13,766 bases of DNA from UHGV virus genome UHGV-0072288. One strand, 5' to 3'. The notes beneath the pieces are model-generated. The model did no database searches and was not told the DNA's origin. It worked only from the letters and a program-made list of their open reading frames with translations. The translations under genes were made by a program, and so were the position numbers. Positions 1 through 13,766 of this stretch are shown piece after piece. Within the stretch, counting starts at the first letter, position 1; each line of letters begins with the position of its first letter. Source of the DNA: a virus.

Positions 1-42
1 TTTAGTACAGTACCCGTACTGTTTTCACGCTGTCAACAAAAA

Positions 43-61
43 ACGCGCCCGAAGGTGCGTT
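43..61 (-). terminator. Possible intrinsic terminator downstream of int (minus-strand transcript)
   Basis: Imperfect GC-rich hairpin ACGCGCC-CGAA-GGTGCGT at 43-60. An A6 run at 38-43 on the + strand gives a U-run after the stem on the minus-strand RNA. About 85 nt past the int stop. Stem has one mismatch on the minus-strand RNA. Confidence 0.3.
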
Positions 62-144
62 AATAATGCCTATCAAATAAGGCTCTCATTGATAAATCAA
101 TATGTTATGAGCGCCTTATTAACCCTAATACACCCTAAAATGCC

Positions 145-1138
145 CTAGTCGGTGGACATTATGTGGACACTCCCACGCATAGGGTTAAATCGTATGGCAT
201 CAGTCAGATAATCTGGGGCGAAGTGAGCATATGTCATTGTTTGCTCGATTGTTGTATGACCCAAAATACGCTGTAGCGTGATGATATTCCCGCCGTTGAT
301 CATGAAATGTGTTGCGAAGGTATGGCGTAAAACATGCAGTGCCTGACCTTTCGGCAAGTCTGGCTTAATCTTACGAAGAACATCGCGAACTCGCTCATAG
401 TTGGTATCGAACAATTTCCCCGATTTGCGTGTAAGGATGTAGTCCGCGATTTCCTTCGATATCGGAACAGTACGAGCTGGGCCGGTTTTGGTCTTAACAA
501 AGGTCACACGGTTACTTATCACGTTTTCAGCTTTAAGATTACTGGCTTCACCCCCATCGTGCTCCTGTATTCAGGCAAAGAACGACAACTCTGCGATCAT
601 CCCCTGTAAGGGCATTCAGCAAATGGTGGATCTCTTCTTCGGACAGAAATGACATTTCTGTGTTTTCCAGACGTAACTTCTTCACGGCGCGAAACGGGTT
701 TTCGTGATGAAATTCTTCCATATCTATCAGCAAACTGAACATGCTGGACATGGAACAGAAATCCCTGTTTACCGTGCCAGCAGATACTCCACTATGAAGT
801 CGTTCTGCACGATATTTCATCAGAAAGTTGCGGGTAAGCTCGTACACTCTGGGTTCCGCCATTTCTCGGTTGATTATTTCCAAACGCTTTTTATATGAGT
901 CACCATAGTTGTGATTCTTTCCATGGTAGCTCCACCATAAAGAAATTAACTCGGATACAAGCCTCCTGTCTGCGGGTTTATCCTGCCATTCTTTATCGTG
1001 AAAGTTTGTCAGTACATACCGCTCGTATGCCTGTGCTTCCGCCTTTCTGTCAAATTTGCGTCGAATCCTTCTTCCTGAGGTTCCGCGCGGTCTAACGTCC
1101 ACTTCAAAACGACCATCATCAAGCTTCTTAATCGACAT
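145..1138 (-). pseudogene. int: Tyrosine recombinase/integrase (P2 Int-like), reading frame broken by a +1 frameshift in a C5 run (551-555)
   Basis: Two adjacent minus-strand ORFs (548-1165 and 145-522) in different frames. N-terminal part MSIKKLDDGRFEV...LCLNTGARWG-stop; C-terminal part carries the catalytic tyrosine-recombinase region (HVLRHTFATHFMINGGNIITLQRILGHTTIEQTMTYAHFAPDYL). Removing one C from 551-555 gives a contiguous ~331-aa ORF (...GARWGEASNLKAENVISNRVTF...). Start set at ATG 1138 (GGAGGG 7 nt upstream) rather than the tool's 1165. Confidence 0.75.
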
Positions 1139-1204
1139 AGCGAAGCCCTCCGATGTATGAATCATTATGTAAATTTTGCGCTAACGCATAGAAAAACCAG
1201 ATGT

Positions 1205-1504
1205 TTAGCCAATTTTCCGGGTGGAACGGGATGATGTTATGTTGTCTTGCCCATCAGGGGAGAGAGACGGGGACACCTGCCCCGCAATTGGTGCCGTCTT
1301 ATCTGTCATTAACCAGAGTGTATATTTTTCAAACATATGTACCTCTATAACACTTTCTAAGACTTCTGCACGAGCTGGCTGATGGCCAGTTTCGTACTTT
1401 TTTATTGTTCCAAGAGCTACCCCAGTAAGCTCTGAAAAATCTTTTTGAGTTAACCCTTCAGCTTTCCGGATCTGCCGGAGTTTCTCCGCATAATTTCTTG
1501 ACAT
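1205..1504 (-). CDS. C: Immunity repressor, P2 C-like (99 aa, HTH)
   Basis: 99-aa ORF with helix-turn-helix (LTQKDFSELTGVALGTIKKYETG) and C-terminal KYTLWLMT...APIAGQ pattern resembling P2 C (recalled from memory). Lies upstream of int on the same strand and divergent from a cox-like gene, as in P2. Confidence 0.75.
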   Translation of the reverse strand: MSRNYAEKLRQIRKAEGLTQKDFSELTGVALGTIKKYETGHQPARAEVLESVIEVHMFEKYTLWLMTDKTAPIAGQVSPSLSPDGQDNITSSRSTRKIG

Positions 1505-1612
1505 GGTTCTTGTATCGCAACTATTATTGGTTCTTACAAAAGAACCTTGACAAAAGAACCCTAGAACGACTTAAAGCGCCCTAGGAACCCAAACTAACGA
1601 AGGATACCACAG
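1505..1612. promoter_or_regulatory. Divergent Pc/Pe-type promoter-operator region between C and cox
   Basis: -35-like TTGACA at 1547-1552. Inverted repeat GGTTCTTACAAAAGAACC at 1529-1546. Repeated hexamer AGAACC/GGTTCT at 1505-1510, 1529-1534, 1541-1546, 1555-1560, 1584-1589. SD GAAGGA at 1599-1604, 8 nt before the cox ATG. Confidence 0.5.
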
Positions 1613-1894
1613 ATGAAGGAACCAGCAGAAAAGGCGCTTTCAGAGTTGGTGACCCCTGAGCTTTTTGCCGAATATATAGGCAAAACGCCTGCTGCAATTC
1701 GCAAAATGGCCACGGCTGGAAAACTGCCGGTAATCCGCATGAAAGACCCTCTAAATCCATCAAAAAAAGGTGGGGAAATCTATATCCATCGGGGGGAATG
1801 GGATGCTTATGCCATTCATTTGGCTCAAATTGCCCCGCCTGAATGGCATGACTGGAAGAACCGTTTATTCACGAAAGATAAAAGTGCTCGTTAG
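1613..1894 (+). CDS. cox: Cox-like small DNA-binding protein (excision/lysogeny-lytic switch)
   Basis: 93-aa ORF divergent from the repressor gene with a good SD. Position and size match P2 Cox / 186 Apl. Sequence similarity not verified. Confidence 0.55.
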   Translation: MKEPAEKALSELVTPELFAEYIGKTPAAIRKMATAGKLPVIRMKDPLNPSKKGGEIYIHRGEWDAYAIHLAQIAPPEWHDWKNRLFTKDKSAR

Positions 1895-1920
1895 TAAACT
1901 AAATATTATTGGGGATTATC

Positions 1921-2256
1921 ATGAAGACTAAATATGCCACGCTGATTCGTAGTCTGTTGCAAAACTATCACGCTCAGGCAAAAACCATTGATAAAGAAAC
2001 ATTCTCTGTACATAGCGATGGCTTGCAGTTAATGGAATTAAACATTCAGCTTGCAAAATGCCTTGAGGGTATAACCTCCACTGCTCGCTTTAATAATGAT
2101 AGTGATGATTTTGAAGAACTGCACAAAATCACGCTTATGGTATTTGGCGGAAATATACCAACTGAAAATAACATTTCCGGTCTTATGTCGCTGGCTACCA
2201 CAGCGTTAAAAAGTAATAACTCGCATCTTAAATCTGTTGCAGCTTCCCAACGTTAA
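1921..2256 (+). CDS. Hypothetical protein (AT-rich early-region cargo)
   Basis: ATG at 1921 preceded by GGGGA (1911-1915); the tool's 1909 start is TTG. 111 aa. Lower GC than flanking phage genes. No recognisable motif. Confidence 0.5.
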   Translation: MKTKYATLIRSLLQNYHAQAKTIDKETFSVHSDGLQLMELNIQLAKCLEGITSTARFNNDSDDFEELHKITLMVFGGNIPTENNISGLMSLATTALKSNNSHLKSVAASQR

Positions 2257-2265
2257 GGAACCGAT

Positions 2266-2835
2266 ATGAAACATTTAATGATTGACCTTGAAACAATGGA
2301 TAATAAACCGACTTCTGCGATTGCTTCTATCGGTGCTGTATTCTTTGACCCTGAAACTGGCGAAATGGGTGAACAGTTTTATCAACGTGTCAGCCTGGGC
2401 AGCTGTGTAGGCCACGGTCTCACTATGGGGTCAGAAACCGTATTATGGTGGATGCGTCAGGATGCCGAAGCGCGTAGCGAGCTGCTTAATGACGATTGTC
2501 TGGACTTGCCTCTGACGTTAGCTAATCTGGAAGCTTTTATTACTGAGCATTCTGACCCATCTAAAGTACAGGTATGGGGGAATAGTGCAGCGTTCGACAA
2601 TGTTATTTTACGTAATGCATCAGAGAAATGCGGGTTTGCCGATCCACTTTGGTACTACTGGAATGACCGTGATGTAAGAACGGTTGTTGAACTGTCAAAA
2701 ACACTTGGGCTGAATGTTCGTAATATTATTAAGTTTGATGGTGTTAAACATCACGCTTTATATGATGCCATTCATCAGGCTAAAGTTGTTTCTTATGTCT
2801 GGATGTATCTTGTAAAAATAGCCAGTGTGAAATAA
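2266..2835 (+). CDS. DEDDh-family 3'-5' exonuclease (DnaQ/epsilon-like)
   Basis: 189-aa ORF with Exo I motif MIDLETM (D-x-E), Exo II-like WGNSAAFDNVIL and Exo III HHALYDAIHQA (H-x4-D). SD AAGGA 6 nt upstream of ATG. Confidence 0.8.
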   Translation: MKHLMIDLETMDNKPTSAIASIGAVFFDPETGEMGEQFYQRVSLGSCVGHGLTMGSETVLWWMRQDAEARSELLNDDCLDLPLTLANLEAFITEHSDPSKVQVWGNSAAFDNVILRNASEKCGFADPLWYYWNDRDVRTVVELSKTLGLNVRNIIKFDGVKHHALYDAIHQAKVVSYVWMYLVKIASVK

Positions 2836-2837
2836 CG

Positions 2838-3056
2838 ATGCTTACAGTGACCTCTCATGCAAGTGAAAGTGTCATTCACAAGGCATTTTCAGTGCTGACA
2901 GAATATTACAACGGCAAAAAGGTATATCAGGTTATTAAGCCAAAACATTATTTCTCTGTTCATGTTTCTTATCGCTGGCGATTACTGAGTAAGGATAAGG
3001 GCAGAAGCTGGGAACTAATGACACATGAGCGATATAACAAGCAGTACAGAATATAG
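2838..3056 (+). CDS. Hypothetical small protein (72 aa)
   Basis: ATG 2 nt after the exonuclease stop, co-directional, ends just before the primase-helicase gene. No recognisable motif. Confidence 0.4.
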   Translation: MLTVTSHASESVIHKAFSVLTEYYNGKKVYQVIKPKHYFSVHVSYRWRLLSKDKGRSWELMTHERYNKQYRI

Positions 3057-3095
3057 TTTTTGCCTTTTACCCATTATTTCACATCTGGATTATTT

Positions 3096-5753
3096 ATGAA
3101 CGAAACGATACAACAGGACGTTGTGCGCCGTCTTGTTCGGGACTTTGAATTTAAAGAGCGGGATAAGTATTTGCAGCAGGGCGTTTGCCCTGCCTGTCGT
3201 AAGCGCGAATTATTTACCAGCATAGAAAAGCCCTGGATTCTGAAATGTGGCCGTGAAAATAACTGCGCACATCAGATTGTCGTGAAAGAGCTGTATCCGG
3301 ATATCTTTGAAGACTGGTCAAAACGTTACCAGACCACAGAAGATAACCCCCATGCAGTAGCTGAGGCGTATCTGCGCGAGGCCAGAGGGCTGGAGACTGA
3401 GCCATTAAAAGGCTGTTTTACCCAGGGTGCATTCGTGAAAGATGGCATGGGGTCGGCAACGGTCAGATTTTCGCTGTCATGCGGTGCAACATGGGAGCGC
3501 ATCATTGACCAGCCGCAGCGCTTCGGTAAGCAGAAAGCCAACATCAGGGGAAGCTATGTCGGTCACTGGTGGGTTCCTCCCTTTATCAACCTGCAGGAAG
3601 TGAACGAAATCTGGATCACTGAGGGAATCTTCAACGCGCTGAGTCTGTGCCAGGTAGGGTTACCTGCAGTTGCCACACTGAGCAGTAACAACTATCCGCT
3701 GGCCGCACTGGATACGCTGGCCAAAGAACTGGGTGAAAAACCACGTCCACGTCTTGTATGGGCGTTTGACGGCGATAAAGCCGGCACAAAGCACACACTG
3801 GCGTTCGCTGCCCGTAGTGATGCTGCAGGATGGAAAACTCGTGCCGCGCAGCCGGTGAAATCATCGGCATCGCTGGACTGGAATGACCTGTTGTTACGTA
3901 ACCGGTTCAGTAAGTCGGACATTAAAAATTATCGCTACTATGGCGATCTCCTTCTGGCAAAAAGCCCGACTGAGAAAGCGCTGCTCATGCATCAGCATAA
4001 CGAGTGGCACTCGTTCTACTTTGAGCATAACTCCCGCATGTACTGGTTTGAGCTGGATCTGGACAGGTATATGCGAGCCTATGAGCGCATCACCAATACC
4101 GGTACCGAAGTGGTGATGGAGTGGGAGGCCAAAGAACGGGCGGTTAAAGAGTCAGGCGGCGTGACCGAAATAGCTAACTGCTGGCTGACGCCGCTTTACT
4201 TTCAGCGGTCTGAACCTACGGACGAGTCCTGGTATTACGTGAAAGTCAGTATGCCTAACCGGCCAGCCGTGAAAGATACTTTCACGGCTAATCAGCTCAC
4301 CAGCTCCGCCGAGTTCAAAAAGCGTCTGCTGCACATCGCCAAAGGGGCGGTGTACACAGGCAGCACCAAACAGCTGGATAAGTTCATCCAGATGCGCCTC
4401 CCTGAAATCAAAGAGGTAAAGACGCAGAATTTCATCGGCTATAACAAGGATTATGCCGCCTGGTTGTTTAACCGCGTGGCCGTTTGCGATGGCCGGCTGT
4501 ATGAGATGAACGACGAGGATTACTTCGAAATCAACAGTGCCAGCGTTAAGAGCCTGAGCCTCACGCCGGCGCTGGATCTGAATCCGAAGCTGAACGAGTT
4601 TACTACGGGTTGGGTAGACGATATCTGGACGGCATTTGGTGAAAAAGGGTATGTGGCGCTGGCGTTCTGGCTGGGGTCGCTGTTTGCCGAACAAATCCGC
4701 GAGCGTGACAAGTCATTTCCGTTTCTGGAAATCGTGGGCGAGCCGGGGACAGGTAAATCCACGCTGATAGAATTTCTCTGGAAGCTCGCCGGCCGTGAGG
4801 AATACGAAGGGTTTGACCCATCTAAATCTACCGCCGCCGCGCGTGGCCGTAACTTCGCCCAGGTCGGTAATCTGCCGGTTGTGCTGATTGAGGGCGACCG
4901 TACTACCGATAACGCCAAGCAACGCGCTTTTGACTGGGACGAGCTGAAATCACTGTATAACGGTCGTGCCTCCCGCGCCGTGGGTATCAAATCGAACAAT
5001 AACGAGACGTATGAGCCGCCGTTCAGGGGAAGTATTGTGATAGCGCAAAATGCCGACACAGACGGCAGCAAGGCGTTTCTGGAGCGTATCATCCACATCT
5101 ATACCGACAAGCGCGGCCAGTCCATTCAGACGCGCCACGCTGCAGAACGACTTGAACAACTCCCCGTTAGCCAGGTATCCGGATTCACATTACTGGCCAC
5201 CATGCGCGAAAAAGAAATCATGCAGACGTTCGGCAGGGGGTACGAGCGAGCTAGGAATGAGCTGGAGTCTAATAGCAGTATTCGCCATATCCGTATTGCA
5301 AAGAATCACGCGCAGCTTGTGGGCTTGCTGGAGGCGCTTGCACTTGTTGTACCGGTGCCGGTTGAACGTATAGAAAAAACGCGTGAAGCCATCACCGCGC
5401 TGGCCGTTGAACGTTGTCAGGCACTTAAAAAGGATCATCCTCTGGTGCAGGAGTTCTGGGAGCTGTTTGATTACTTGGATGAACTGGCACCTTATGGCAT
5501 CAATCATTCATCAGATGAAAATGAAATCGCGGTTAATTTCAATCACATGGAAGAGGTCGCCGCAGCACACCGGCAGCGTATTCCGTTCACGTTAACGGAA
5601 ATTAAAAAGCTGCTTAAAAACGGCAATGAGCGCCGGTTTATCAGACAAAGCACCACGCGCAGCGCGGTAAGTGAGCGCCATAATCGTGGTAAAGGGGATA
5701 TGCAACGGATGCCGGAAACATTCCGCTGCTGGATATTTGGCCGGGAAAAGTAA
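3096..5753 (+). CDS. Replication primase-helicase (zinc-ribbon + TOPRIM primase + SF3/D5-type helicase), P4 alpha-like architecture
   Basis: N-terminal Cys4 zinc ribbon (CPAC...CGRENNC). TOPRIM motifs (WITEGIFNAL; VWAFDGDKAG). C-terminal P-loop NTPase with Walker A GEPGTGKST, Walker B PVVLIEGD and motif C IVIAQNAD. The tool starts at TTG 3060; ATG 3096 (MNETIQQ) preferred. Confidence 0.85.
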   Translation: MNETIQQDVVRRLVRDFEFKERDKYLQQGVCPACRKRELFTSIEKPWILKCGRENNCAHQIVVKELYPDIFEDWSKRYQTTEDNPHAVAEAYLREARGLETEPLKGCFTQGAFVKDGMGSATVRFSLSCGATWERIIDQPQRFGKQKANIRGSYVGHWWVPPFINLQEVNEIWITEGIFNALSLCQVGLPAVATLSSNNYPLAALDTLAKELGEKPRPRLVWAFDGDKAGTKHTLAFAARSDAAGWKTRAAQPVKSSASLDWNDLLLRNRFSKSDIKNYRYYGDLLLAKSPTEKALLMHQHNEWHSFYFEHNSRMYWFELDLDRYMRAYERITNTGTEVVMEWEAKERAVKESGGVTEIANCWLTPLYFQRSEPTDESWYYVKVSMPNRPAVKDTFTANQLTSSAEFKKRLLHIAKGAVYTGSTKQLDKFIQMRLPEIKEVKTQNFIGYNKDYAAWLFNRVAVCDGRLYEMNDEDYFEINSASVKSLSLTPALDLNPKLNEFTTGWVDDIWTAFGEKGYVALAFWLGSLFAEQIRERDKSFPFLEIVGEPGTGKSTLIEFLWKLAGREEYEGFDPSKSTAAARGRNFAQVGNLPVVLIEGDRTTDNAKQRAFDWDELKSLYNGRASRAVGIKSNNNETYEPPFRGSIVIAQNADTDGSKAFLERIIHIYTDKRGQSIQTRHAAERLEQLPVSQVSGFTLLATMREKEIMQTFGRGYERARNELESNSSIRHIRIAKNHAQLVGLLEALALVVPVPVERIEKTREAITALAVERCQALKKDHPLVQEFWELFDYLDELAPYGINHSSDENEIAVNFNHMEEVAAAHRQRIPFTLTEIKKLLKNGNERRFIRQSTTRSAVSERHNRGKGDMQRMPETFRCWIFGREK

Positions 5754-5766
5754 CGGTTCACTAGTG

Positions 5767-5831
5767 CCTAACTTTATTGTTAGGGGAAGGAGCGAACATT
5801 GAAGCAATAGGGGCGTTATCTTTATTGCTTC
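5767..5831. terminator. Two hairpins between convergent primase-helicase and glycosyltransferase genes (candidate terminators)
   Basis: Hairpin CCTAAC-TTTATT-GTTAGG at 5767-5784. Hairpin GAAGCAATA-(13 nt)-TATTGCTTC at 5801-5831 followed by a T-rich stretch on the + strand. The second overlaps the stop of the minus-strand gene. Confidence 0.4.
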
Positions 5832-6541
5832 ATTCTTATTTTAAAGTTCTTTAATTTACCGTACAGAGTATCCCGCAGGGAAAACGAAGGAACCCAATCA
5901 AAACCAGTACGCCAGGGGCGTGGACTGCCATGAAAGCAAACAACCGCCACATTATCAGGGACTTTCCCTGTCGCAGCCTCAGAGGCTAAATTTGCATTGA
6001 AGCCAATCATCGAGGGGGTGGCGATGTCACATTTATAACTAACAATTGAGCCAGGAATGATATCCTGCCATAGGGCTGGTTTTATGATGCTACCGAGAAA
6101 TCCCTGATCACCCCATTTGTCTTCAGTCTGACAATTGCGCATAATTTTCTCAGGATCAATAATGAATTGTTCCCAAATCGTCTTTTTAATCGACGCCGGA
6201 ATCATCATTATTGATGAGTTTACTCTTGAGGCATGGTTAAACTCCCGAAGCATTGTAAATTTCTTCGCACCTTCGAAAATATGAATATCTCCCGTGACCA
6301 CAACATCTACGTCAAAATAGAGTAAATCTTGGTCTCCAAGGACTGGGTGATTAGGATTAAATAGTTCAATTTTAGACCACCATCCCGGCCAGTTATAAAG
6401 CAAAGGGGTTGTGTTAACTCCAGGAATATTATCTGCATCGGTTAAACATATAGATGGAATATCTTTGAACTGACGATGAAGCCATTGGGCGTGTTTAGGG
6501 GTAAACTCTTTACTACATTTAAGAACTGAGACTATTAACAT
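5822..6541 (-). CDS. GT-A fold nucleotide-sugar glycosyltransferase-like protein (GT8-like motifs), hotspot cargo
   Basis: 239-aa ORF with strong SD (GGGAGG 6 nt before ATG at 6541). DxD motif after a hydrophobic strand (LLYFDVDVVV). C-terminal FHGSPRPW resembling the GT8 H-x-G-x-x-K/R-P-W motif. Noticeably AT-rich. Confidence 0.6.
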   Translation of the reverse strand: MLIVSVLKCSKEFTPKHAQWLHRQFKDIPSICLTDADNIPGVNTTPLLYNWPGWWSKIELFNPNHPVLGDQDLLYFDVDVVVTGDIHIFEGAKKFTMLREFNHASRVNSSIMMIPASIKKTIWEQFIIDPEKIMRNCQTEDKWGDQGFLGSIIKPALWQDIIPGSIVSYKCDIATPSMIGFNANLASEAATGKVPDNVAVVCFHGSPRPWRTGFDWVPSFSLRDTLYGKLKNFKIRMKQ

Positions 6542-6600
6542 AAGATGCCTCCCAAAATTTGGAAAGATAATATCATGTTTAGGAGGGGGGGACTATTAAT
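6542..6600 (-). promoter_or_regulatory. Putative promoter/5' region of the glycosyltransferase gene, containing a homopolymer tract
   Basis: SD GGGAGG (complement of 6548-6553). -10-like TATTAT (complement of 6568-6573). G7 run on + strand at 6585-6591 (C7 in the gene's sense) where the spacer/-35 would lie. No convincing -35. Confidence 0.3.
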
Positions 6601-6655
6601 CACTTGGTCATTCATCGACGTTGATAGATGGGAATCTGTTACATCTCAGAAAATA

Positions 6656-6680
6656 AAAGCACCGGTAGCGGTGCTTTTTT
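6656..6680. terminator. Bidirectional rho-independent terminator
   Basis: Stem GCACCG/CGGTGC (6659-6664 / 6669-6674), extendable with A-T pairs, loop GTAG. T6 at 6675-6680 on the + strand and AAAATAAAA at 6650-6658 (U-run for the minus-strand transcript). Immediately follows the stop of the Ogr-like gene. Confidence 0.65.
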
Positions 6681-7010
6681 CTATGCGGCAGCAGTGCCGT
6701 CCTGACTCAGAAACTTTAACATCAGCTGCTTTTGCTGGATATCAAGGCTGTTACAGATAGTGGCGATCAACGCATCGCTGGATTTGGCGCTGGGGCTGAT
6801 GGTATGTGAGAATGTCATATTCATCACAAAAGTGTGACCACATTCAACATCGGTACACGCGCAATATAAATCCGACAGTTCCTTGTGTTTTCGGGCTGTT
6901 TTTTTGATAACAGCCCTTGCCTCACATACCGGACAGTAAACCTTCATTACCCGCATATCCATCGCTCCGGAAGTTGGAAAACGATGATATTTTAGCCTTT
7001 TTGCGAACAT
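6681..7010 (-). CDS. ogr: Ogr/Delta-family zinc-finger protein (late-gene transcription activator family)
   Basis: CPVC-x22-CACTDVEC-GHTFV pattern matching P2 Ogr (CPLC...CQNVNCSATFI, from memory). Start ATG at 7010 overlaps the portal stop (TAATG) with SD GGAAGGTG upstream. Alternative internal starts at 6956/6947 would give an Ogr-sized ~88-91 aa protein. Confidence 0.65.
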   Translation of the reverse strand: MFAKRLKYHRFPTSGAMDMRVMKVYCPVCEARAVIKKTARKHKELSDLYCACTDVECGHTFVMNMTFSHTISPSAKSSDALIATICNSLDIQQKQLMLKFLSQDGTAAA

Positions 7011-8028
7011 TAATCACCTTCCAGCTCACTGTCTTTCAGGAAATTAAGGTACAGGTGGGGCGGTACATCACTTTCCTGTTCCACTGCGGCGGTAAACATG
7101 CGCTGAATGGGCAAAATTTCTGCTTTGCGGTAGGTTTTGGACGCTTTCTCAACATCTCCCATTACTGCGCCGTTCGTCGGGATAATCCCCGCCAGTCCTG
7201 CCGGGAATCGATGCGCGGTCAGTACGTCCTGGGCGCTGATGCTCTTGATGTTCTGAAACTCATCTTTGGCGCTGATATCCCCAATCGGGATAAATTTGAT
7301 GCCGTCCGGATCGCCTTTGGGGATGTTCACAAACATGGTGCTGAAGTTCCCGATCCCCTTTGACTGCTCCAGCTTCTGAATAATTTCTTCTTCCACTTCA
7401 TCAGTCATATTTGGGTCGTTACAGTAGATCATGCCACCTGTGTGTCCGCCGTTATGGTAGTAACGCCGACGAAAAATTGTTGCCTCACCGTTAAGCAGGG
7501 CAGAATGGATACCGCTGATATAATCCGGCAGACCATAAATCGCCTGTTGCGGATCGTACTGCCTGAGAAAAATAATATCTTCAGGCGGATAAATCATCGG
7601 TTCACCCTGCTGCAGTACCACAAACTCCCCGGTCTTACGCTGGCGGGTGAAGTGGAAGCCGGGGGTTACGGTCCCCCCCCCCCCCCCCAGCCGTTACGCA
7701 CTTTCAGAATGGCCACATCACCGAAGGTCAGCCAGTCGAACACGGCTGCACCAAGCTGTTCATGCGTCAGTCCGCCGTCTTTATAGTTTGCCGTCACCAT
7801 ATTGCGACGGGCATACAGCACACCGCCGTGCTGCGCGTTCAGGTTCACCAGTTGCGCCAGCGCCAGCCGGTCAATCGGGAGCGTCCAGTGTTCCGCTTCA
7901 TTGTCATACCAGACGTCTGTGTAGTTTGTGCCGGTCGTCAGAATGGGTTCCGGTTTACCCAGGGTAATAAGGCTCATATGGCGCGGCTTGCTGGCGGTGC
8001 GGCGTTCCCTGTATTTCCGTTTTTTCAT
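7010..8028 (-). pseudogene. Q: Portal protein (P2 gpQ-like), frame interrupted by a 16-nt homopolymer
   Basis: Two minus-strand ORFs (7666-8028 and 7010-7621) together give ~340 aa, matching the ~344-aa P2 portal. The upstream frame reads ...LKVRNGWGGGGGP-stop through the G16 tract. The downstream frame is open back through the tract (...GGGGGTVTPGFHFTRQRKTGEFVVLQQGEPM...). ATGA overlap with the terminase stop at 8025-8028. Confidence 0.8.
7673..7688. repeat. Homopolymeric tract C16 (+ strand) = G16 in the portal coding sense
   Basis: Direct count: 16 consecutive C at 7673-7688. Tract lengths of 14 or 17 would join the two portal reading frames; the observed 16 does not. Confidence 0.95.
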
Positions 8029-9158
8029 GCTGCTTTCCCTAAGTTACCCCAGCGTGATTTTCGCTGGTTTTCAAAGTTTAATGGCTCGTTGTCAATGGCA
8101 TGGGCGATAGCCCAGAAACTGTCTGCGTGTCCTGTTTCTGCTGTGCGATCGGCGACGAAAGTCATTGCGTTGCCGCTGGCCGTGGACGTACGGCGGATGG
8201 TCATAAAGCTGGCGGCGATTTCGGTCTTCTCCTTATCCCATTCCACGCGGCCGTCTTCGATAACGTCGATCATCTTCATCACCAGACGATTTTTGGTCTC
8301 GACGCCGTAGCGGATCGCCACTGCCTGACGCATGGCAAAGTGCTGAACGTCTTCAAAGACACCGCTACCCAGTCCAGTGATATCAATGCCGATGTAGGTC
8401 ATGTTGTACTGGCCAAACAGCTTCTTAATCTGTGCCGCCTGCCACTTCCAGTTCATCCCCTGCCAGTGGAATACACGCAGTACCCGAAATTTTTCGCCGG
8501 CCACTATCGGCGGCGCGATGATCACGAAGGTGGAGGTGTCTCCGCTGCGAGCCGGGTCATAACCCGCCCACACTTCACGGTTGCCGAACGGCCGGGGCAG
8601 GTTTTCGTCATGATCCTCCCAGAAATACCAGGTTGCACCAATCTGGCGGCTTTTCAGGATGTTCCTGATTTGCTGATGAAGATTAGCGCGAAGGTGTTTC
8701 TGGTAACCGAAAAGGTGCTCCAGCGCGAACCGGTCAAAATCTTCCTGTGTCAGTCCGCTGATGTCGTTCTTTTTGTACTTGCCACGTTTCCGGGGCTTTT
8801 CGTCGCCACCGGACTGACGCGCCGGCGCATCATTTTCACTGTGTTTAATTTCTGCCAGCTTTTCCTGATGCTTATTGTGCTGTGCACGTAGTTTCACCAG
8901 GTGAGAAACGAGACTGTCCAGCTCCCGCAGCTCCAGCTCCGATTTCCCTTCACGTAATGTCAGTGACTGAATGCGACGGTTTAATGCATCTTCGGTGGAT
9001 TCATGACTGAGTAATTCCGCCCAGCAATATTTCTCCGCCCAGTAATAGACAATGCGTCTGTTAGGCAGATTAAGTTCGCTGGCAATTTCCTGCGGGGTAT
9101 AGCGTTTTAAATAAAGCGCCCGCGCAACGCCTTTTAATTCTTCTGAATATTTAGCCAT
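8025..9158 (-). CDS. P: Terminase large subunit (P2 gpP-like), apparently shortened: N-terminal HTH plus C-terminal nuclease, ATPase core largely missing
   Basis: N-terminal HTH (YTPQEIASELNLPNRRIVYYW). Deviant Walker-A-like KSRQIGAT followed almost immediately by nuclease-type motifs (AGYDPARSGDTSTFVI; YIGIDITGLGSG; HADSFWAIAHA). 378-382 aa versus ~590 aa recalled for P2 gpP. Start uncertain (GTG 9173 or ATG 9158, neither with a good SD). Confidence 0.65.
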   Translation of the reverse strand: MAKYSEELKGVARALYLKRYTPQEIASELNLPNRRIVYYWAEKYCWAELLSHESTEDALNRRIQSLTLREGKSELELRELDSLVSHLVKLRAQHNKHQEKLAEIKHSENDAPARQSGGDEKPRKRGKYKKNDISGLTQEDFDRFALEHLFGYQKHLRANLHQQIRNILKSRQIGATWYFWEDHDENLPRPFGNREVWAGYDPARSGDTSTFVIIAPPIVAGEKFRVLRVFHWQGMNWKWQAAQIKKLFGQYNMTYIGIDITGLGSGVFEDVQHFAMRQAVAIRYGVETKNRLVMKMIDVIEDGRVEWDKEKTEIAASFMTIRRTSTASGNAMTFVADRTAETGHADSFWAIAHAIDNEPLNFENQRKSRWGNLGKAA

Positions 9159-9301
9159 GCACACATTATGCACGGGCGTTTGTATATTAAATCCCGCTTT
9201 ATTTCTGATGTGTTCGGCTAATAGCCTATATCCGAAATGAAGTGAATGCGGCGGTTAATTTTATTGGCGATACTGAAAACCGCAGCATGAACGGAGGCAA
9301 T
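9159..9301. promoter_or_regulatory. Divergent late-promoter region between terminase (P) and scaffold (O) genes
   Basis: Position equals the P2 divergent P/O late-promoter interval. Strong SD GGAGG at 9294-9298 before the O ATG. No TGT-N12-ACA Ogr-type dyad found by eye. Confidence 0.35.
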
Positions 9302-10141
9302 ATGTCAGGTTCACAACTGGCAACAAACTGGATTTGTATCGCCACTGCGGGTGAAACGGTTGATAAGCGATTTATTGAAGAACAATGGTTGCTTGATGCC
9401 GCTGAATTATATGACCCCTCTTTGTATACCGCGCTGTTATGGCCGGAACATTCCCGTAATTTCGGGAATATGGGGGAGGTGCTGGAAGTAAAAGCCGAGC
9501 GGGATGATGAAGGTATTCTTCGTTTATATGCCCGCCTCTGTCCGGCGATTTCATTGCTACAGGCAAATGCAGACGGTCAGCTTTTATTTTTATCACCGGA
9601 GTTTACACCGGACGGCAATTTCAGAAATACCGGGAAAACCTATCTTGAGGGACTGGCCATTACTGACAGTCCGGCCGGGGTAAGCACCACACGGTTACGT
9701 TTCAGCCGCACCAGGGGAAAACGCATCGGACCATACAAGCCGCTGGCGTTTGATGAAGTCAGGGAATTTAAAAAGGAAAAGGGAATGTCAAAGACAGCGA
9801 AAAAGGGCTGGCGCCATTTTTTCAGTATCGAAGAACCGGAGCAGACCCCGGAGCAGGAACCTTCACAGTCTGATGCCTTACAGGCGCTGGCTGAAGCGCT
9901 GGATGCCATTGATAAGCGCGTATCTGCTATTGAAACCCGTCTGGGTGAGGCGGAAGAAGCGGTATCTGATGTGCAGGACGATGTGGACACCGTGAAGGAA
10001 GTAGTGGACACCGAAGATTTTGCGCGTCTGGTGGGGAACCTGCCGGAGCTGGTGAAAAACTTCAGCAAGCTGAATAACAAAGTTACTCAACTGCCGGACA
10101 AGAAATTCAGCAAGGGCAAAAAAGGCTTCAATTTCCTGTAA
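9302..10141 (+). CDS. O: Capsid scaffolding protein (P2 gpO-like)
   Basis: 279 aa from ATG 9302 with GGAGG SD; the tool's 9242 start is GTG. N-terminal region resembles gpO and the C-terminal half is acidic/coiled-coil (EEAVSDVQDDVDTVKEVVDTEDF). Sits between terminase and major capsid genes. Confidence 0.75.
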   Translation: MSGSQLATNWICIATAGETVDKRFIEEQWLLDAAELYDPSLYTALLWPEHSRNFGNMGEVLEVKAERDDEGILRLYARLCPAISLLQANADGQLLFLSPEFTPDGNFRNTGKTYLEGLAITDSPAGVSTTRLRFSRTRGKRIGPYKPLAFDEVREFKKEKGMSKTAKKGWRHFFSIEEPEQTPEQEPSQSDALQALAEALDAIDKRVSAIETRLGEAEEAVSDVQDDVDTVKEVVDTEDFARLVGNLPELVKNFSKLNNKVTQLPDKKFSKGKKGFNFL

Positions 10142-10175
10142 GGGATAACACTACTTTTCTTTAAGGAAAAAGAAT

Positions 10176-11204
10176 ATGCAATTAAATGCGAAAGCCCGTG
10201 AGTTTCTGCTTCAGTATCACACCGGGCTGCGTGAATCCTACGGGGCGACCGACAGCGAACGCTGGTTTGCACTCACCGACCCCAAAGAAACCCAGCTGCG
10301 CAATGCGCTGATGGAGCAGTCTGATTTCCTGAATCTGATCACCGTTGCCGATGTCGATCAGCTGCAGGGGCAGGTGGTTCCGGTTGGCAGCTCTGGCCTG
10401 TATACCGGGCGTGTACTGGATGGCCGCTTCCGTAAGAAAGTGGGCGTGAGTGGTAATGATTACAGTCTGGTCGAGACCGACTCATGCGCCGCACTCACCT
10501 GGCAGTTGCTTTCTGTCTGGGCGAACGCCGGCGATGAAAACGAGTTTTTCCAGCGTGTTCAGGAGTTCACCAATCAGGCGTTTGCGCTGGATATGCTGCG
10601 TATCGGCTTTAACGGTACCAAAGTGGCCGAGACCACGAACGCGGAAACCAACCCGAACGGCGAGGATGTGAACAAGGGCTGGCATCAGATCGTCAAAGAG
10701 TGGAAGGACGGCCAGCAGATCATCACTGATGCGGTGGTGCTTGACGGTGACGGGAAAGGCGATTACGTGTCGCTGGATGCAATGGCCTCCGACCTTATCA
10801 ACGCCAAAATCCCGGCACAGTACCGTAATGATCCACGCCTGGTGGTTCTTGTCGGCGCTGATCTGGTCGCGGCGGAGTCGTTCCGTCTGTATCAGAAAGC
10901 AGACAAACCCACGGAGAAGATCGCCGCGCAACTGCTGTCTGACAGCATCGCCGGCCGCACGGCTTACGTACCGCCGTTTATGCCAGGCAAACGCATGATT
11001 GTTACGACACTGCCAAACCTGCACATCTACACCCAGCGCGGCACGCGTCAGCGTAAAGCGGAGTTTGTGGAAGACCGTAAACAGTACGAAAACAAATACC
11101 TGCGTAACGAAGGTTATGCGGTTGAGTATCCGGAACTGTACGCCGCGTTTGATGAAAGTGCGGTAGCTATCGGGGCACCTGTCGCGCCTCCGGCAGGCGA
11201 GTAA
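10176..11204 (+). CDS. N: Major capsid protein (P2 gpN-like)
   Basis: 342-aa ORF directly downstream of the scaffold gene with SD AAGGA. Size and position match P2 gpN (~357 aa). Confidence 0.75.
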   Translation: MQLNAKAREFLLQYHTGLRESYGATDSERWFALTDPKETQLRNALMEQSDFLNLITVADVDQLQGQVVPVGSSGLYTGRVLDGRFRKKVGVSGNDYSLVETDSCAALTWQLLSVWANAGDENEFFQRVQEFTNQAFALDMLRIGFNGTKVAETTNAETNPNGEDVNKGWHQIVKEWKDGQQIITDAVVLDGDGKGDYVSLDAMASDLINAKIPAQYRNDPRLVVLVGADLVAAESFRLYQKADKPTEKIAAQLLSDSIAGRTAYVPPFMPGKRMIVTTLPNLHIYTQRGTRQRKAEFVEDRKQYENKYLRNEGYAVEYPELYAAFDESAVAIGAPVAPPAGE

Positions 11205-11214
11205 GGGGGATTTA

Positions 11215-12252
11215 ATGCAACTGTCACCGGCACAGCGCCACAGCGCACGAATTGAAGCGGAGCGGTTACTGCGACAGCAGCAGTCTCTGGACACGGAAAC
11301 CAGCCTGCATATTCAGATTGTCGCGCTGGAGAAAGATGTCGCCGCAGCTGCAGCGATTGAAAGCCGCGCTGAGCGAATGGAATTTAAGCGTGATGTGCTG
11401 TTACCGCGCTGGATGCCAACCGCGCAAGCCGGGACGGTTATCCAGACAGAGCGCATTAACGGTCGCGTGTATGAGCTGGCCACCAGTGAGGATGTAGTGA
11501 TCGCTTCCGGTACGGCCTGCGCATTACTGCCGGTAAAAGCCACCGGCACCGGGGGCGCATATAACCTTGCGCCGGGATATTACCGCATTCTGCCGGTTGC
11601 CGTTGACGGTATCAGCCACGTGGCCAGCGAAGAAAACTGGCTGACCGTACCGGGCGCGGATGAAGAAAGTGATGACGAGCTGCGCGAACGCTGCCGCAAT
11701 CAGTTCAATCTGGTGGGGAATTACCACACTGACGCCGTTTACCGGTCGATGATTGCCGGCGTTGCAGGGCTGAGTATTGACCGGATTTTCTTTGAACATG
11801 AAGCGCCGAGGGGACCCGGTACCGCCAACGCGTATCTGTTGCTGGACAGCGGGGTGGCTTCTTCGCCGTTCGTGGATGCCGTCAATGACTATATCAACAC
11901 GCAGGGGCATCACGGCCACGGTGATGATATGCAGTGCTATCCCATGCCGGAAACGCTTCATGATCTGTCCGTCACAGTTTATGTCAAAAATCTGGCCAAT
12001 TTCAGCGATGAGGACAGGAAAACCCTGAAGGACGGGGTGGAGAACATGATCCGCTGTGCTTTTCGTGAGAATGCTGATTATGACGTCAGGAAGACGTGGC
12101 CATATTCGCGTTTTTCCTTTTCTCAGCTGGGGCGGGAGATCCACAGGACATTTGCTCAGACGGAATCACTGTCTTTTTCACTGGGTGATATCACCAGCGA
12201 ACTGAGTGTTCCACGCCTGAAATCGCTTGCGGTTGTTGTTGAAAATGAGTGA
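11215..12252 (+). CDS. Chimeric ORF: terminase small/endonuclease subunit (gpM-like) N-terminus (~73 aa) fused to a baseplate protein J-like body
   Basis: N-terminus MQLSPAQRH...KRDVLLPRWMP matches the gpM start (MTSPAQRH...KRELLPFWLPW, from memory). The remainder (...ESDDELRERCRNQF...GVASSPFVDAVNDYI...) resembles P2 gpJ (...ESDTDYRLRIQQAF...GVASEDLLAVVRNAL...). Implies an in-frame deletion of the M-to-J interval. Confidence 0.5.
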   Translation: MQLSPAQRHSARIEAERLLRQQQSLDTETSLHIQIVALEKDVAAAAAIESRAERMEFKRDVLLPRWMPTAQAGTVIQTERINGRVYELATSEDVVIASGTACALLPVKATGTGGAYNLAPGYYRILPVAVDGISHVASEENWLTVPGADEESDDELRERCRNQFNLVGNYHTDAVYRSMIAGVAGLSIDRIFFEHEAPRGPGTANAYLLLDSGVASSPFVDAVNDYINTQGHHGHGDDMQCYPMPETLHDLSVTVYVKNLANFSDEDRKTLKDGVENMIRCAFRENADYDVRKTWPYSRFSFSQLGREIHRTFAQTESLSFSLGDITSELSVPRLKSLAVVVENE

Positions 12253-12583
12253 GTTCCTGAAAAAGCTGGCCGGGATGGTGCTTCCTTCCTGGATGAACAA
12301 AGGCGAGCCGGCGAAGCTGCTGAAAACGGCGCGGCGGTTCTGGACTGAGGTTTACGGCTGGGTTACGTGGCCAGTGAATCAGTTCGATCCGCTGACGTGT
12401 ACGCCGGCATTACTGAACCTGCTGGCGTATGACCGCGATATACCGACCTGCTTTTGCGCTGGTTTACCGGTTATGTTGAACGTTCACAACCAGCTGAAAA
12501 CGGTTATCAGCGTCTGTTCATTCGTGAGCTGGCCGGTGTTTTTGAAAGGATGTGGCCATGTTCATTTCAGCACCCGACATTAA
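12245..12583 (+). CDS. Tail protein I-like (gpI / YmfQ family), C-terminal part doubtful
   Basis: ATG 12245 overlaps the upstream stop (ATGAGTGA). N-terminal ~65 aa (...VNQFDPLTCTPALLNLLAYDRDI) resembles gpI (...WNPDTCPANLLPWLAWAFSVDRWD). After ~12440 the frame is Cys-rich and atypical, while frame 2 opens at 12433 and stays open to the window end. Confidence 0.45.
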   Translation: MSEFLKKLAGMVLPSWMNKGEPAKLLKTARRFWTEVYGWVTWPVNQFDPLTCTPALLNLLAYDRDIPTCFCAGLPVMLNVHNQLKTVISVCSFVSWPVFLKGCGHVHFSTRH

Positions 12584-13766
12584 GGGATGTAGCCGGCTGG
12601 CTGACGGAAAACAGCGGGATCGGTGTCAGTGTACCCGATGTGTCTTACAGCGATACTCCGATCCCCCATTTCACCCATAACGGTACCGGCTATCAGTTGC
12701 TGAACAACCTGGGCAGGGCATTCAGTATCCAGGATTACATCTGGTACCAGTTGCCTGATGGTTCGCTTTACGTCGGCGGTGCTGAAAAGTCACTGTTTAC
12801 CGGTCGTCCGGTCGAAGTGCCGGCAGAGTTCAGCCAGGGGGCTGCTGGCGGGAATACCATAACGTTACCGGTGATCCAGACGATACGACCCGGCGTTGAG
12901 CTTAACGGTGAACGGGTCACCAAAGTCCATCTTACAAATGACACGATGACTATCACCTGGACACCCCGGAACCGCGTCACAGGCAGCCCCCTTCAGAAAA
13001 CACCGACACAACGACAGATTGAGAGCCATTATCCGGAACTGGCTTCCGGGCTTCATCTGCCAAAGATGGCCAGAGTGGTGGCACATACTGAACCCGTGAA
13101 AAGTGGTAATTTTGCCGATCCATTCCGGCCACGTTATGCCGTGGACGTTCAGCTGCTTGACGCAGACGGAAACCCGGACAATCAGACGCCTGTTTACTCA
13201 GCGGTGCCGCTGCCGGTGCCAATGGCCGGGAATGATTCAGGTATGTTTCAGTTTCCGCCAGAAGGGACGCTGGTTGAGGTTGCATTCACGGGAGGCAGAC
13301 CGGATAAACCCTTTATCAGGCAGACGCTGCCGGATGGTACCAGCCTGCCGGACGTTAAACCCGGTGAGCAATTGCAGCAGCAGAGGGAAGAAGTATCCCA
13401 GAGGGTGACTCAGGCTGGAGACTGGGTAAGGCAGACCGATCAAACCATCAGTGAAACATCGATGGCGCGAACCGTAAAAGCCGATACGGAGCAGCGCGAA
13501 CTGGTCAGCCGTGAAACCACGGTGAAAGCCACGGACAAAACCACGGTACTGGGAACCACCACACTGCTGGCCGGAGCCATCCAGCAGGTAAGCGCCGGTG
13601 ATTATAGCCAGGCGGTGAAAGGTAACAGGCTGGCCAGTATTGAAGGAAACGAAGAAACGGACATAGCAGGACAGCAGTCCACTAAAGTGGGCGGTGCTAT
13701 AGCCGTGGAGGTTGGCGAAAGCCTGACAGAGAAGATTGCCGCACTGCGTAAATCAGTGGCCGCCGG
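12550..13766 (+). CDS. Tail/baseplate spike-like protein with gpV/gp5/VgrG-type OB-fold motif and beta-helix-like repeats; partial at the window end, start uncertain
   Basis: Frame 2 is open from 12433 to the window end. Contains ...MFQFPPEGTLVEVAFTGGRPDKPFI..., matching the gp5/gpV/VgrG OB-fold signature, followed by Thr/Val/Gly-rich repeats (TVKADTEQRELVSRETTVKATDKTTVLGTT...). Candidate starts: ATG 12550 (SD abuts the ATG), GTG 12640, ATG 13066. Confidence 0.35.
   Translation, partial: MWPCSFQHPTLRDVAGWLTENSGIGVSVPDVSYSDTPIPHFTHNGTGYQLLNNLGRAFSIQDYIWYQLPDGSLYVGGAEKSLFTGRPVEVPAEFSQGAAGGNTITLPVIQTIRPGVELNGERVTKVHLTNDTMTITWTPRNRVTGSPLQKTPTQRQIESHYPELASGLHLPKMARVVAHTEPVKSGNFADPFRPRYAVDVQLLDADGNPDNQTPVYSAVPLPVPMAGNDSGMFQFPPEGTLVEVAFTGGRPDKPFIRQTLPDGTSLPDVKPGEQLQQQREEVSQRVTQAGDWVRQTDQTISETSMARTVKADTEQRELVSRETTVKATDKTTVLGTTTLLAGAIQQVSAGDYSQAVKGNRLASIEGNEETDIAGQQSTKVGGAIAVEVGESLTEKIAALRKSVAA

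Follow-up and report, generated by a model that had tools for sequence, protein, structure and literature searches.

The tail cluster of P2 runs V-W-J-I-H-G, with V upstream of W-J and D a separate gene at the far end of the cluster. HP1-like tail modules share with it the relative order of J, I, H and G and a gpV-type OB-fold spike, but in these modules the hub and spike are fused and placed after G. In HP1 (orf29-orf35), as in an intact E. coli prophage, J, I, H and G are followed by two small baseplate proteins, with the hub-spike last. The orf30-orf35 module is also present in K139, HP2, phiO18P, Cronobacter ESSI-2 and the Escherichia phages ESSI2_ev (Quadragintavirus), and in HP1, K139 and ESSI-2-type phages the tail genes normally close with a hub-spike. 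Hub, OB-fold and beta-helix are likewise united in one polypeptide in T6SS VgrG and in the fused gp27-gp5 spikes of extracellular contractile injection systems.

The stretch of DNA analyzed here (the window, 13,766 bp) is a single gut-metagenome contig, ENA ERZ1741973 NODE_991, assembled at 4.4x coverage. On it is an E. coli Peduoviridae prophage, inserted next to pheL, whose tail module is HP1-like. The sequence matches intact prophages at the pheL-raiA site with 99.8-100% identity; within the phage collection, the nearest named relatives of the prophage are Quadragintavirus. The prophage of E. coli 2018-18.25PC, designated L001, served as the intact reference, with the intact prophage taken from NZ_AP023286.1 1088169-1115000. 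The initial annotation had described a gpI-like ORF followed by a spike reading frame where P2 would have fiber gene H, and had offered three explanations: another frameshift, a rearrangement, or a tail module of a different contractile-tail lineage. All of the elements it described are present in the sequence at the coordinates it gave, and the main features of the region are as follows:

12245-12583, plus strand: truncated gpI-like tail gene, probably a pseudogene; 112 aa, ATG at 12245, TAA at 12581-12583
12437-12441, no strand assigned: D2 junction, a 3,955-bp deletion, from a three-way comparison of left parent, window and right parent
12433-13766, plus strand: 3′ remnant of the 567-aa hub-spike gene (last tail gene, HP1 orf35 homologue)

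In the intact prophage, the tail genes are ordered tape measure, DUF2590, J, I, fiber H, fiber assembly, a 241-aa protein, an HP1_ORF34-like protein and, last, the 567-aa hub-spike, which is the gene order of HP1 orf27-orf35. The order J-I-H-G-orf33-orf34-orf35 recurs in intact relatives, in which the gene adjoining the hub-spike matches Pfam HP1_ORF34 (E 1.9e-54) and the end of I is separated from the hub-spike start by ~3.4 kb, with no overlap. BLAST places window positions 9608-11427, 11426-12441 and 12437-13766 on L001 1-1820, 10035-11050 and 15001-16330, respectively, at 99.85-100% identity. The suspected rearrangement is thus borne out: a deletion has cost the window 3,955 bp that are present in intact prophages, which are 99.9-100% identical to it on both sides of the junction (100% for L001 10035-11050, 99.85-99.9% for L001 15001-16330). 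A 5-bp microhomology, GATAT, lies at both parental sites (L001 11046-11050 and 15001-15005). The deletion puts gpI-like codon 66 next to hub-spike codon 53, out of frame. It took away the gpI-like gene from codon 67 to codon 195, fiber gene H and the assembly gene, the two small baseplate genes, and codons 1-52 of the hub-spike. In HP1 terms, everything from codon 67 of orf30 through orf31-34 to codon 52 of orf35 has no counterpart in the window, where the I fragment and the orf35-like remnant are all that survives; this copy is a remnant rather than a working module.

The length of the deletion accounts for the change of frame. Since 3,955 is 3 x 1,318 + 1, and so no multiple of three, the I-like ORF continues for 46 codons in the wrong frame before stopping at 12583. 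The absence of H from the window, the doubtful I-like C-terminus and the frame opening at 12433 all follow from this one event. The frameshift envisaged earlier, whether programmed or accidental (a sequencing error, for instance), is therefore rejected. Non-canonical order as such does not hold either: H is missing solely through the deletion, and the spike is also the last gene in HP1 and in intact relatives, which rules out a novel arrangement. The idea of a different contractile-tail lineage was right in that the module is HP1-like and not P2-like, but the position of the spike is normal for that lineage, and the canonical P2 order is the wrong yardstick for it. The I/spike region is very probably a deletion junction in a defective E. 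coli prophage, and a product of ordinary prophage decay. The gene order, the junction and the spike are all of kinds already known.

On the left of the junction, the native part of the I-like ORF comprises codons 1-66 (12245-12442), and its last 46 codons and stop are hub-spike gene read in the wrong frame, which explains why its C-terminus had appeared doubtful. PHROG 1228 ('tail protein') matches the ORF with E 2.9e-24, aligning residues 4-66 with positions 2-64 of 193 in the profile, so that only the first ~66 residues are I-like. A Pfam scan of the 112-aa product gave no match, and there is no full-length match to the gpI-type family (Tail_P2_I / PHROG 1228); the intact 195-aa homologue (L001 10854-11441) passes Tail_P2_I with 24.9 bits (cut-off 20.6). 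By these profile matches, the ORF at 12245-12583 is an N-terminal fragment of a P2 gpI-type family member and not a complete I protein, and an OB-fold spike does lie downstream.

To the right of the junction, the second frame reported inside the I-like gene opens at 12433, immediately after a TGA at 12430-12432, and remains open for 444 codons, through to the contig end at 13766, far exceeding chance. Codon 53 of the hub-spike (TAT) lies at 12439-12441 and the contig stops at ~codon 495; the remnant has neither its native start nor its ribosome-binding site. A full-length homologue matches PHROG 2258 ('baseplate protein') with E 3.6e-275, and the hub-spike aligns over its full length with HP1 30562-32157 (tblastn, 39.8% identity) and with K139 (34.4% identity). 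The remnant contains three parts:

12439-12990, plus strand: hub domain, residues 53 to ~236, predicted gp27/Mu gp44/P2 gpD/VgrG N-terminal fold (AlphaFold2, Foldseek)
13207-13320, plus strand: OB-fold core of the spike (Phage_base_V, Pfam PF04717), containing EGTLVEVAFTGGRPDKPFI
13519-13766, plus strand: start of a gp5-type triple-stranded beta-helix, cut by the contig end

Searches of Pfam and PDB with the sequence of the hub N-module returned no match, and the hub fold was settled by a fold search. AlphaFold2 modeled residues 1-239 of a 95%-identical homologue with pLDDT 92.2 and pTM 0.86; the window itself lacks residues 1-52. The top Foldseek matches of this model in PDB were all baseplate hubs or VgrG (E 5e-12 to 1e-6, query-normalized TM ~0.6-0.7), among them 7aef_q (E 5.2e-12), Mu gp44 (1wru, E 1.1e-8) and VgrG (9jg9, E 1.5e-8); the pyocin R2 hub (6u5h) matched with E 4e-5. 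In many relatives the hub module is a separate protein of 225-236 aa. The monomer model of the full-length hub-spike was poor (pLDDT 41, shallow alignment) and was left out of the fold search.

For the C-terminal half, the gp5/gpV/VgrG-type signature noted earlier, EGTLVEVAFTGGRPDKPFI, falls within the Phage_base_V match. The C-terminal module alone scores 24.2 bits, above the cut-off of 23.8, and the longer sequences fall marginally below it (23.1 for the window fragment, 22.8 for the full-length homologue). Phage_base_V also matches 16 of 28 distant relatives (best E 2.8e-6), and a profile aligns with VgrG structures on the OB region with E 1.4e-8 to 3e-6, the match to 8gra (E 1.4e-8) spanning OB-fold and helix. 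The beta-helix-like repeats are real as well. Downstream of the OB-fold, residues 413-508 of the full-length protein match the T4 gp5 C-terminal helix (phmmer against PDB, 4jiw/1k28, E 6e-7), and Gp5_C scores 25.3 bits on the C-module (cut-off 20.4); the window holds the first ~83 residues of this region, and the contig ends there. An HxH motif (NHSHP) near the C-terminus of an intact homologue (P0002), together with Pfam GpV Apex matches in 2 of 28 relatives, is suggestive of a trimeric needle with a metal-binding apex.

These results support identification of the downstream frame as a VgrG-like hub-spike, with an N-terminal gp27/Mu gp44-type hub and a C-terminal OB-fold and gp5-type beta-helix. 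By predicted fold, a gp27-like hub is fused to the spike in one polypeptide, as in VgrG. The phage hub part is short in comparison with VgrG and contractile injection system spikes (~235 aa versus at least 380), and the T6SS VgrG family models score far below their cut-offs (TIGR01646, 16.5 bits against 121.8; TIGR03361, 15.1 bits against 186). Judged from sequence and model, the protein would work like VgrG, yet it lies outside the VgrG family proper; it is a phage tail gene and not part of a secretion system.

The D2 deletion is one of three in the window. The others, and the ORF that one of them produced, are:

8621-8623, in the minus-strand large terminase gene: D0 junction, a 648-bp in-frame deletion with AGA microhomology (BLAST, junction comparison)
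11426-11427: D1 junction, an 8,216-bp in-frame deletion with AA microhomology (BLAST breakpoints, junction comparison)
11215-12252, plus strand: gpM-J fusion ORF, 345 aa, in frame, produced by D1

D0 strips ~residues 180-395 from the large terminase, removing ~216 residues of its ATPase/nuclease core and leaving 377 of 593 aa, in agreement with a gene call of 377 residues. The ORF at 11215-12252, which the initial annotation had taken for a J-like body upstream of the I-like gene, consists of codons 1-71 of the small terminase gene gpM followed by codons 121-394 of baseplate J (Pfam Baseplate_J, E 7.6e-21, residues 71-285; Phage_term_smal, residues 36-72). Together, D0 and D1 removed all of the intervening head-completion, tail-shaft, tape-measure and lysis genes. 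The integrase frame is disrupted by a 1-nt insertion at 551, and the element retains repressor, cox, replication, ogr, portal, scaffold and capsid genes. We infer that both halves joined at D2 are pseudogene remnants and that the element is incapable of particle production. The junction microhomologies measure 3, 2 and 5 bp (D0, D1 and D2), and the deletions would have arisen by RecA-independent illegitimate recombination, either slipped mispairing or end-joining, at such 2-5 bp stretches; at GATAT, this would have joined the gpI-like start to the remains of the hub-spike.

Of 5,426 complete E. coli genomes, at least 46 have an intact hub-spike gene at the same site, and the gene is uninterrupted in all 18 of the IMG/VR copies at this site. 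The exact combination of deletions in the window is absent from the complete E. coli genomes, in some of which sister copies of the same prophage carry different deletions or IS disruptions. Other cryptic or defective E. coli prophages likewise show short-microhomology internal deletions, fused or truncated ORFs, kept ends, and IS in sister copies. The window differs from them in two respects: its decay is very recent (99.8% identity to intact prophages), and one of its endpoints coincides with those of three other independent deletions.

That coincidence raises the possibility of a non-random origin for the deletion. In four independent events, which affected different E. coli prophages, the right endpoint falls at hub-spike codon 53, the same to within 1-2 bases. 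Their left partners differ (gpI codon 66, capsid codon 75, capsid codon 155 and cII codon 4), and the prophages occupy three chromosomal sites and include both ~90%-identical hub-spike types (ACCGAC and ACCGAT). The crossover intervals (-5..-1, -3..+4, -2..-1 and -3..-2) allow one common point for all four, and 24 bp further downstream lies the end of a fifth deletion. Initiation at a preferred break site or replication block within TAT|ACCGA would refine the decay reading given above, not exclude it. Against it, the window fragment was itself the query of the protein search that turned up three of the other four events, including two of the three at the shared site, and this search favors endpoints at or before codon 53; many other hub-spike remnants end elsewhere. 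Sequence features and wider scans gave no support: DNA hairpin z-scores at the site were -1.3, -0.6 and +0.7; no inverted or direct repeats, no P2/186 cos-like sequence and no strong G-quadruplex were present there (G4Hunter 1.04, equaled by 319 of 27,076 prophage windows); CRISPR spacers from 5,426 E. coli genomes gave no short matches to it; and GTDB representative genomes, JGI metagenomes and IMG/VR yielded no more junctions at codon 53. We consider it possible, but doubtful, that HP1-like prophages of E. coli truly break by preference at TAT|ACCGAYCTG, at codon 53. The cause might then be a nuclease target, a strong point of fork stalling or a pseudo-site for a recombinase. A preferred break would seed one-sided deletions of 4 to ~25 kb, with late genes lost repeatedly and the prophage 3′ end kept. 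Our literature search on HP1 orf35, Quadragintavirus and prophage deletion hotspots found nothing specific.

Neither a hairpin nor a G4, cos-like sequence or CRISPR spacer explains the shared endpoint. Judged by eye only, its likeness to Chi, Ter, dif and invertase crossover sites is too weak to claim.

An assembly or sequencing artefact, in which the sampled strain has an intact prophage and the joins at 12437-12441, 11426 and 8621 are chimeric, is very improbable. Coverage is low, at 4.4x; a poly-C stretch at 7649-7688, a clear sequencing artefact, stands in place of the true portal sequence, where a second assembly has Ns, and the final 3 bases of the contig disagree with the other assembly. 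However, the exact D2 junction recurs in two further assemblies, produced with different assemblers: scaffold_935 of ERZ28565595 (SAMEA2579949) and megahit k127_1754 of ERZ918738 (ERR525732), both 100% identical to the window over every junction they cover; the three assemblies may come from the same or related samples, in which case they place the junction in the reads but are not independent biological replicates. De Bruijn assembly at k=127 needs spanning reads to join over a 5-bp overlap, the contig holds no trace of the deleted 12.8 kb, and finished genomes contain comparable natural deletions, such as the capsid-spike fusion in PK5 and CUPF12.

Least credible of all is a functional arrangement, either a programmed frameshift or translational coupling yielding an I-spike fusion or a selected, capsid-only satellite-like element: the frames do overlap by ~150 nt (12433-12583), D0 and D1 both preserve the frame and the genes listed above are kept, but the overlap was made by a deletion absent from at least 64 intact relatives and is not conserved in functional ones, the large terminase and integrase are broken, and the deletions, being recent as judged from 99.8% identity to the intact prophage, show no conservation of the arrangement.

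With decay by deletion as the preferred reading, the ORFs at 11215-12252, 12245-12583 and 12433-13766 should be labeled as pseudogene remnants or fusions rather than as novel tail proteins or a novel gene order, and the element in the window as a defective prophage. The terminal gene of HP1-like Peduoviridae, mostly annotated as 'hypothetical' or 'baseplate protein', is supported here as a VgrG-style hub-spike fusion. If the recurrent endpoint is real, codon 53 of this gene would offer a natural, sequence-defined hotspot at which to study prophage inactivation by illegitimate recombination.

Translation of the three forward frames, together with the ORF list, bore out what the initial annotation had described at 12245–13766. 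The I-like ORF runs from the ATG at 12245 to a stop at 12581–12583, and a second frame, which opens at 12433 right behind the TGA at 12430–12432, remains open for 444 codons up to the end of the window and carries EGTLVEVAFTGGRPDKPFI. Behind the I-like ORF there is no fibre gene. PHROG 1228 matched the I-like ORF in residues 4–66 only, over profile positions 2–64 of 193.

A megablast search of 5,426 complete E. coli genomes identified the window as a prophage adjoining pheL, with ~99.8% identical copies in about 15 genomes. Breakpoints were placed against the intact copy of strain 2018-18.25PC (loci L003 and L001). Four colinear blocks align, and the window therefore carries three deletions (D0, D1 and D2).

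Colinear blocks and deletions in the window relative to the intact prophage.
Block 1: window 1–8623; L003 13170–21791
Block 2: window 8621–11427; L003 22437 onward / L001 1–1820
Block 3: window 11426–12441; L001 10035–11050; 100% identity
Block 4: window 12437–13766; L001 15001–16330; 99.85% identity
D0: window 8621–8623; 648 bp, in frame, large terminase; microhomology AGA
D1: window 11426–11427; 8,216 bp, in frame; microhomology AA
D2: window 12437–12441; 3,955 bp; microhomology GATAT

D0 removes residues ~180–395 of the large terminase, leaving a product of 377 of 593 residues. D1 fuses codon 71 of the small terminase gene (gpM) to codon 121 of baseplate J, which yields the 345-aa ORF at 11215–12252 with an N-terminus matching Pfam Phage_term_smal and a body matching Baseplate_J; head-completion, sheath, tube, lysis and tape-measure genes are lost. 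In D2 the 195-aa gpI-like gene breaks off at codon 66 and is joined there to the last tail gene, here called hub-spike, at codon 53 of the latter. Lost with D2 are the remainder of I, a 525-aa tail fibre with Phage_tail_fib and Collar domains, the fibre assembly protein, a protein of 241 aa, a baseplate protein of the HP1_ORF34 family (E 1.9e-54) and codons 1–52 of the last gene. Three does not divide 3,955, so the I-like ORF reads 46 wrong-frame codons of the downstream gene, whereas the correct hub-spike frame is open from 12433, its start lost. The rearrangement suspected initially is thus D2, seen against the intact copy; the further frameshift proposed alongside it is absent, the change of frame being an outcome of deletion length.

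The HP1 order is orf27 (the long gene at the tape-measure position), orf28, orf29 (J), orf30 (I), orf31 (fibre), orf32 (assembly), orf33, orf34 and orf35, and it recurs in the intact E. coli prophage and in ESSI2_ev129. In this lineage the tail cluster thus normally closes with a spike gene, and the suggestion of a tail module from a lineage other than P2 was correct in so far as the module is HP1-like. Of the order called non-canonical, only the adjacency of spike and I is abnormal, because of the deletion. In intact prophages the hub-spike gene is followed by ~1 kb without an annotated gene (L001 16551–17570) and by an opposite-strand acyltransferase gene ahead of raiA (L001 17571–18674); this region, which the window stops short of, is a possible location of the cos site and of an O-antigen-modifying moron. 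Elsewhere in the window, the exonuclease and primase genes flank a 72-aa ORF (2838–3056) whose annotation in sister prophages is ParE family toxin-like protein.

The full-length hub-spike homologue (567 aa) matches PHROG 2258, 'baseplate protein' (E 3.6e-275), and aligns over its whole length with the final gene of HP1 (orf35, 39.8% identity), HP2, K139, phiO18P, F108, Cronobacter ESSI-2 and the Escherichia ESSI2_ev phages, classified as Quadragintavirus. An exhaustive HMMER search showed that many relatives are two separate proteins, matching residues 2–228 and ~243–566. When scanned alone, the C-terminal module reached the Pfam cut-offs of both Phage_base_V and Gp5_C, as the spike-type reading of this frame had anticipated, and Phage_base_V was matched by 16 of 28 distant relatives. 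Its profile matched VgrG structures (8gra, E 1.4e-8, the alignment spanning OB-fold and helix) as well as the T4 gp5 helix, which a single hub-spike sequence also matched (E 6e-7). The N-terminal module had no sequence-level match in Pfam or PDB. Its AlphaFold model is confident (pLDDT 92.2), and every one of its best Foldseek matches was a baseplate hub or the N-terminal region of a VgrG: AlgoCIS 7aef_q (E 5e-12), MuSo2/Mu gp44, P1, E217, the pyocin R2 hub and T6SS VgrG. Hub-spike therefore has the VgrG architecture of hub, OB-fold and beta-helix. Although hub-spike shares this architecture with T6SS VgrG, it scores far below the T6SS VgrG family models, failing by a wide margin; as judged from models and profiles, it would work like VgrG while standing outside the VgrG family.

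Could imperfect assembly or sequencing have produced the junctions? The window is a complete contig of low coverage: ENA ERZ1741973 NODE_991_length_13766_cov_4.40777 matches it exactly in length and has the same genes in its last 11,522 bases. It is imperfect. At 7649–7688 real portal sequence has given way to a stretch whose last 16 bases are all C, and the portal ORF is split by it; this is apparently an artefact of sequencing or assembly, and another assembly has Ns there. The integrase gene (145–1137, minus strand) is broken into two ORFs by a 1-nt insertion at 551 relative to intact relatives, which could be an error given 4.4x coverage; the integrase of the sister prophage in strain HZ13 is likewise pseudogenised. 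The junctions, however, agree among three assemblers, a k=127 assembly requires reads spanning each of them, and the contig contains nothing of the deleted 12.8 kb. Leaving aside a stretch of Ns, the overlaps of the window with ERZ28565595 scaffold_935 and with ERZ918738 k127_1754, a megahit contig from human gut, show 100% identity, junctions included, and four metagenome contigs, NODE_991 among them, encode the exact products of 11215–12252 and 12245–12583. The same prophage has left comparable decay products in finished genomes too: PK5 and CUPF12 carry an in-frame capsid-spike fusion, HZ13 an ISKpn26-associated loss, and there are IS1/IS100 variants. Artefactual junctions are very improbable, and the sequence evidence for real deletions is the stronger.

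The right endpoint of D2 recurs: four independent prophage deletions with different left partners, D2 included, share it inside TAT|ACCGAYCTG.

Deletions ending at or near hub-spike codon 53.
Window: 12439–12441 (= L001 15003–15005)
PK5 and CUPF12 (L004): ~14049–14055; capsid codon 75 joined to the site; microhomology TATACCG
L010, Logan contig: ~4723–4724; capsid codon 155 joined to the site; microhomology AT
L011, ENA contig: ~10010–10012; fourth codon of a cII-like gene joined to the site; microhomology TA
L012, GenBank assembly: ~10506–10508; fifth deletion, 24 bp downstream of the site

The prophages concerned occupy three integration sites and include both hub-spike sequence types, which are ~90% identical: the window and PK5 have ACCGAC, L010 and L011 have ACCGAT. 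Numbered from the A of ACCGA as +1, the four crossovers fall within -5..-1, -3..+4, -2..-1 and -3..-2, all compatible with a single crossover point inside TAT. The recurrence is partly ascertainment: only endpoints at or before codon 53 rank high because the protein search was seeded with the window fragment, and other searches returned remnants ending at many other positions. Still, no endpoint but this one turned up in the first 53 codons, and among complete E. coli genomes the sole truncated copy also ends at this site. Tests of the site for hairpins, repeats, G-quadruplex potential, resemblance to cos and CRISPR spacer matches revealed no cause, and scans of GTDB representative genomes, JGI metagenomes and IMG/VR yielded no further codon-53 junctions.

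Many chimeric database proteins carry the hub-spike 3′ part fused to other phage genes, or read through its stop (P0010, 666 aa; P0123, P0131, P0136, P0145, P0300, P0301 and P0307), with partners such as GPO or HP1_ORF34 in precomputed Pfam domains. They are further decay products and are easy to mistake for novel proteins. What was observed here is a deletion scar of an ordinary kind, left in a prophage that belongs to a known genus and is decaying; its recurrent endpoint is the only element that might repay more work.
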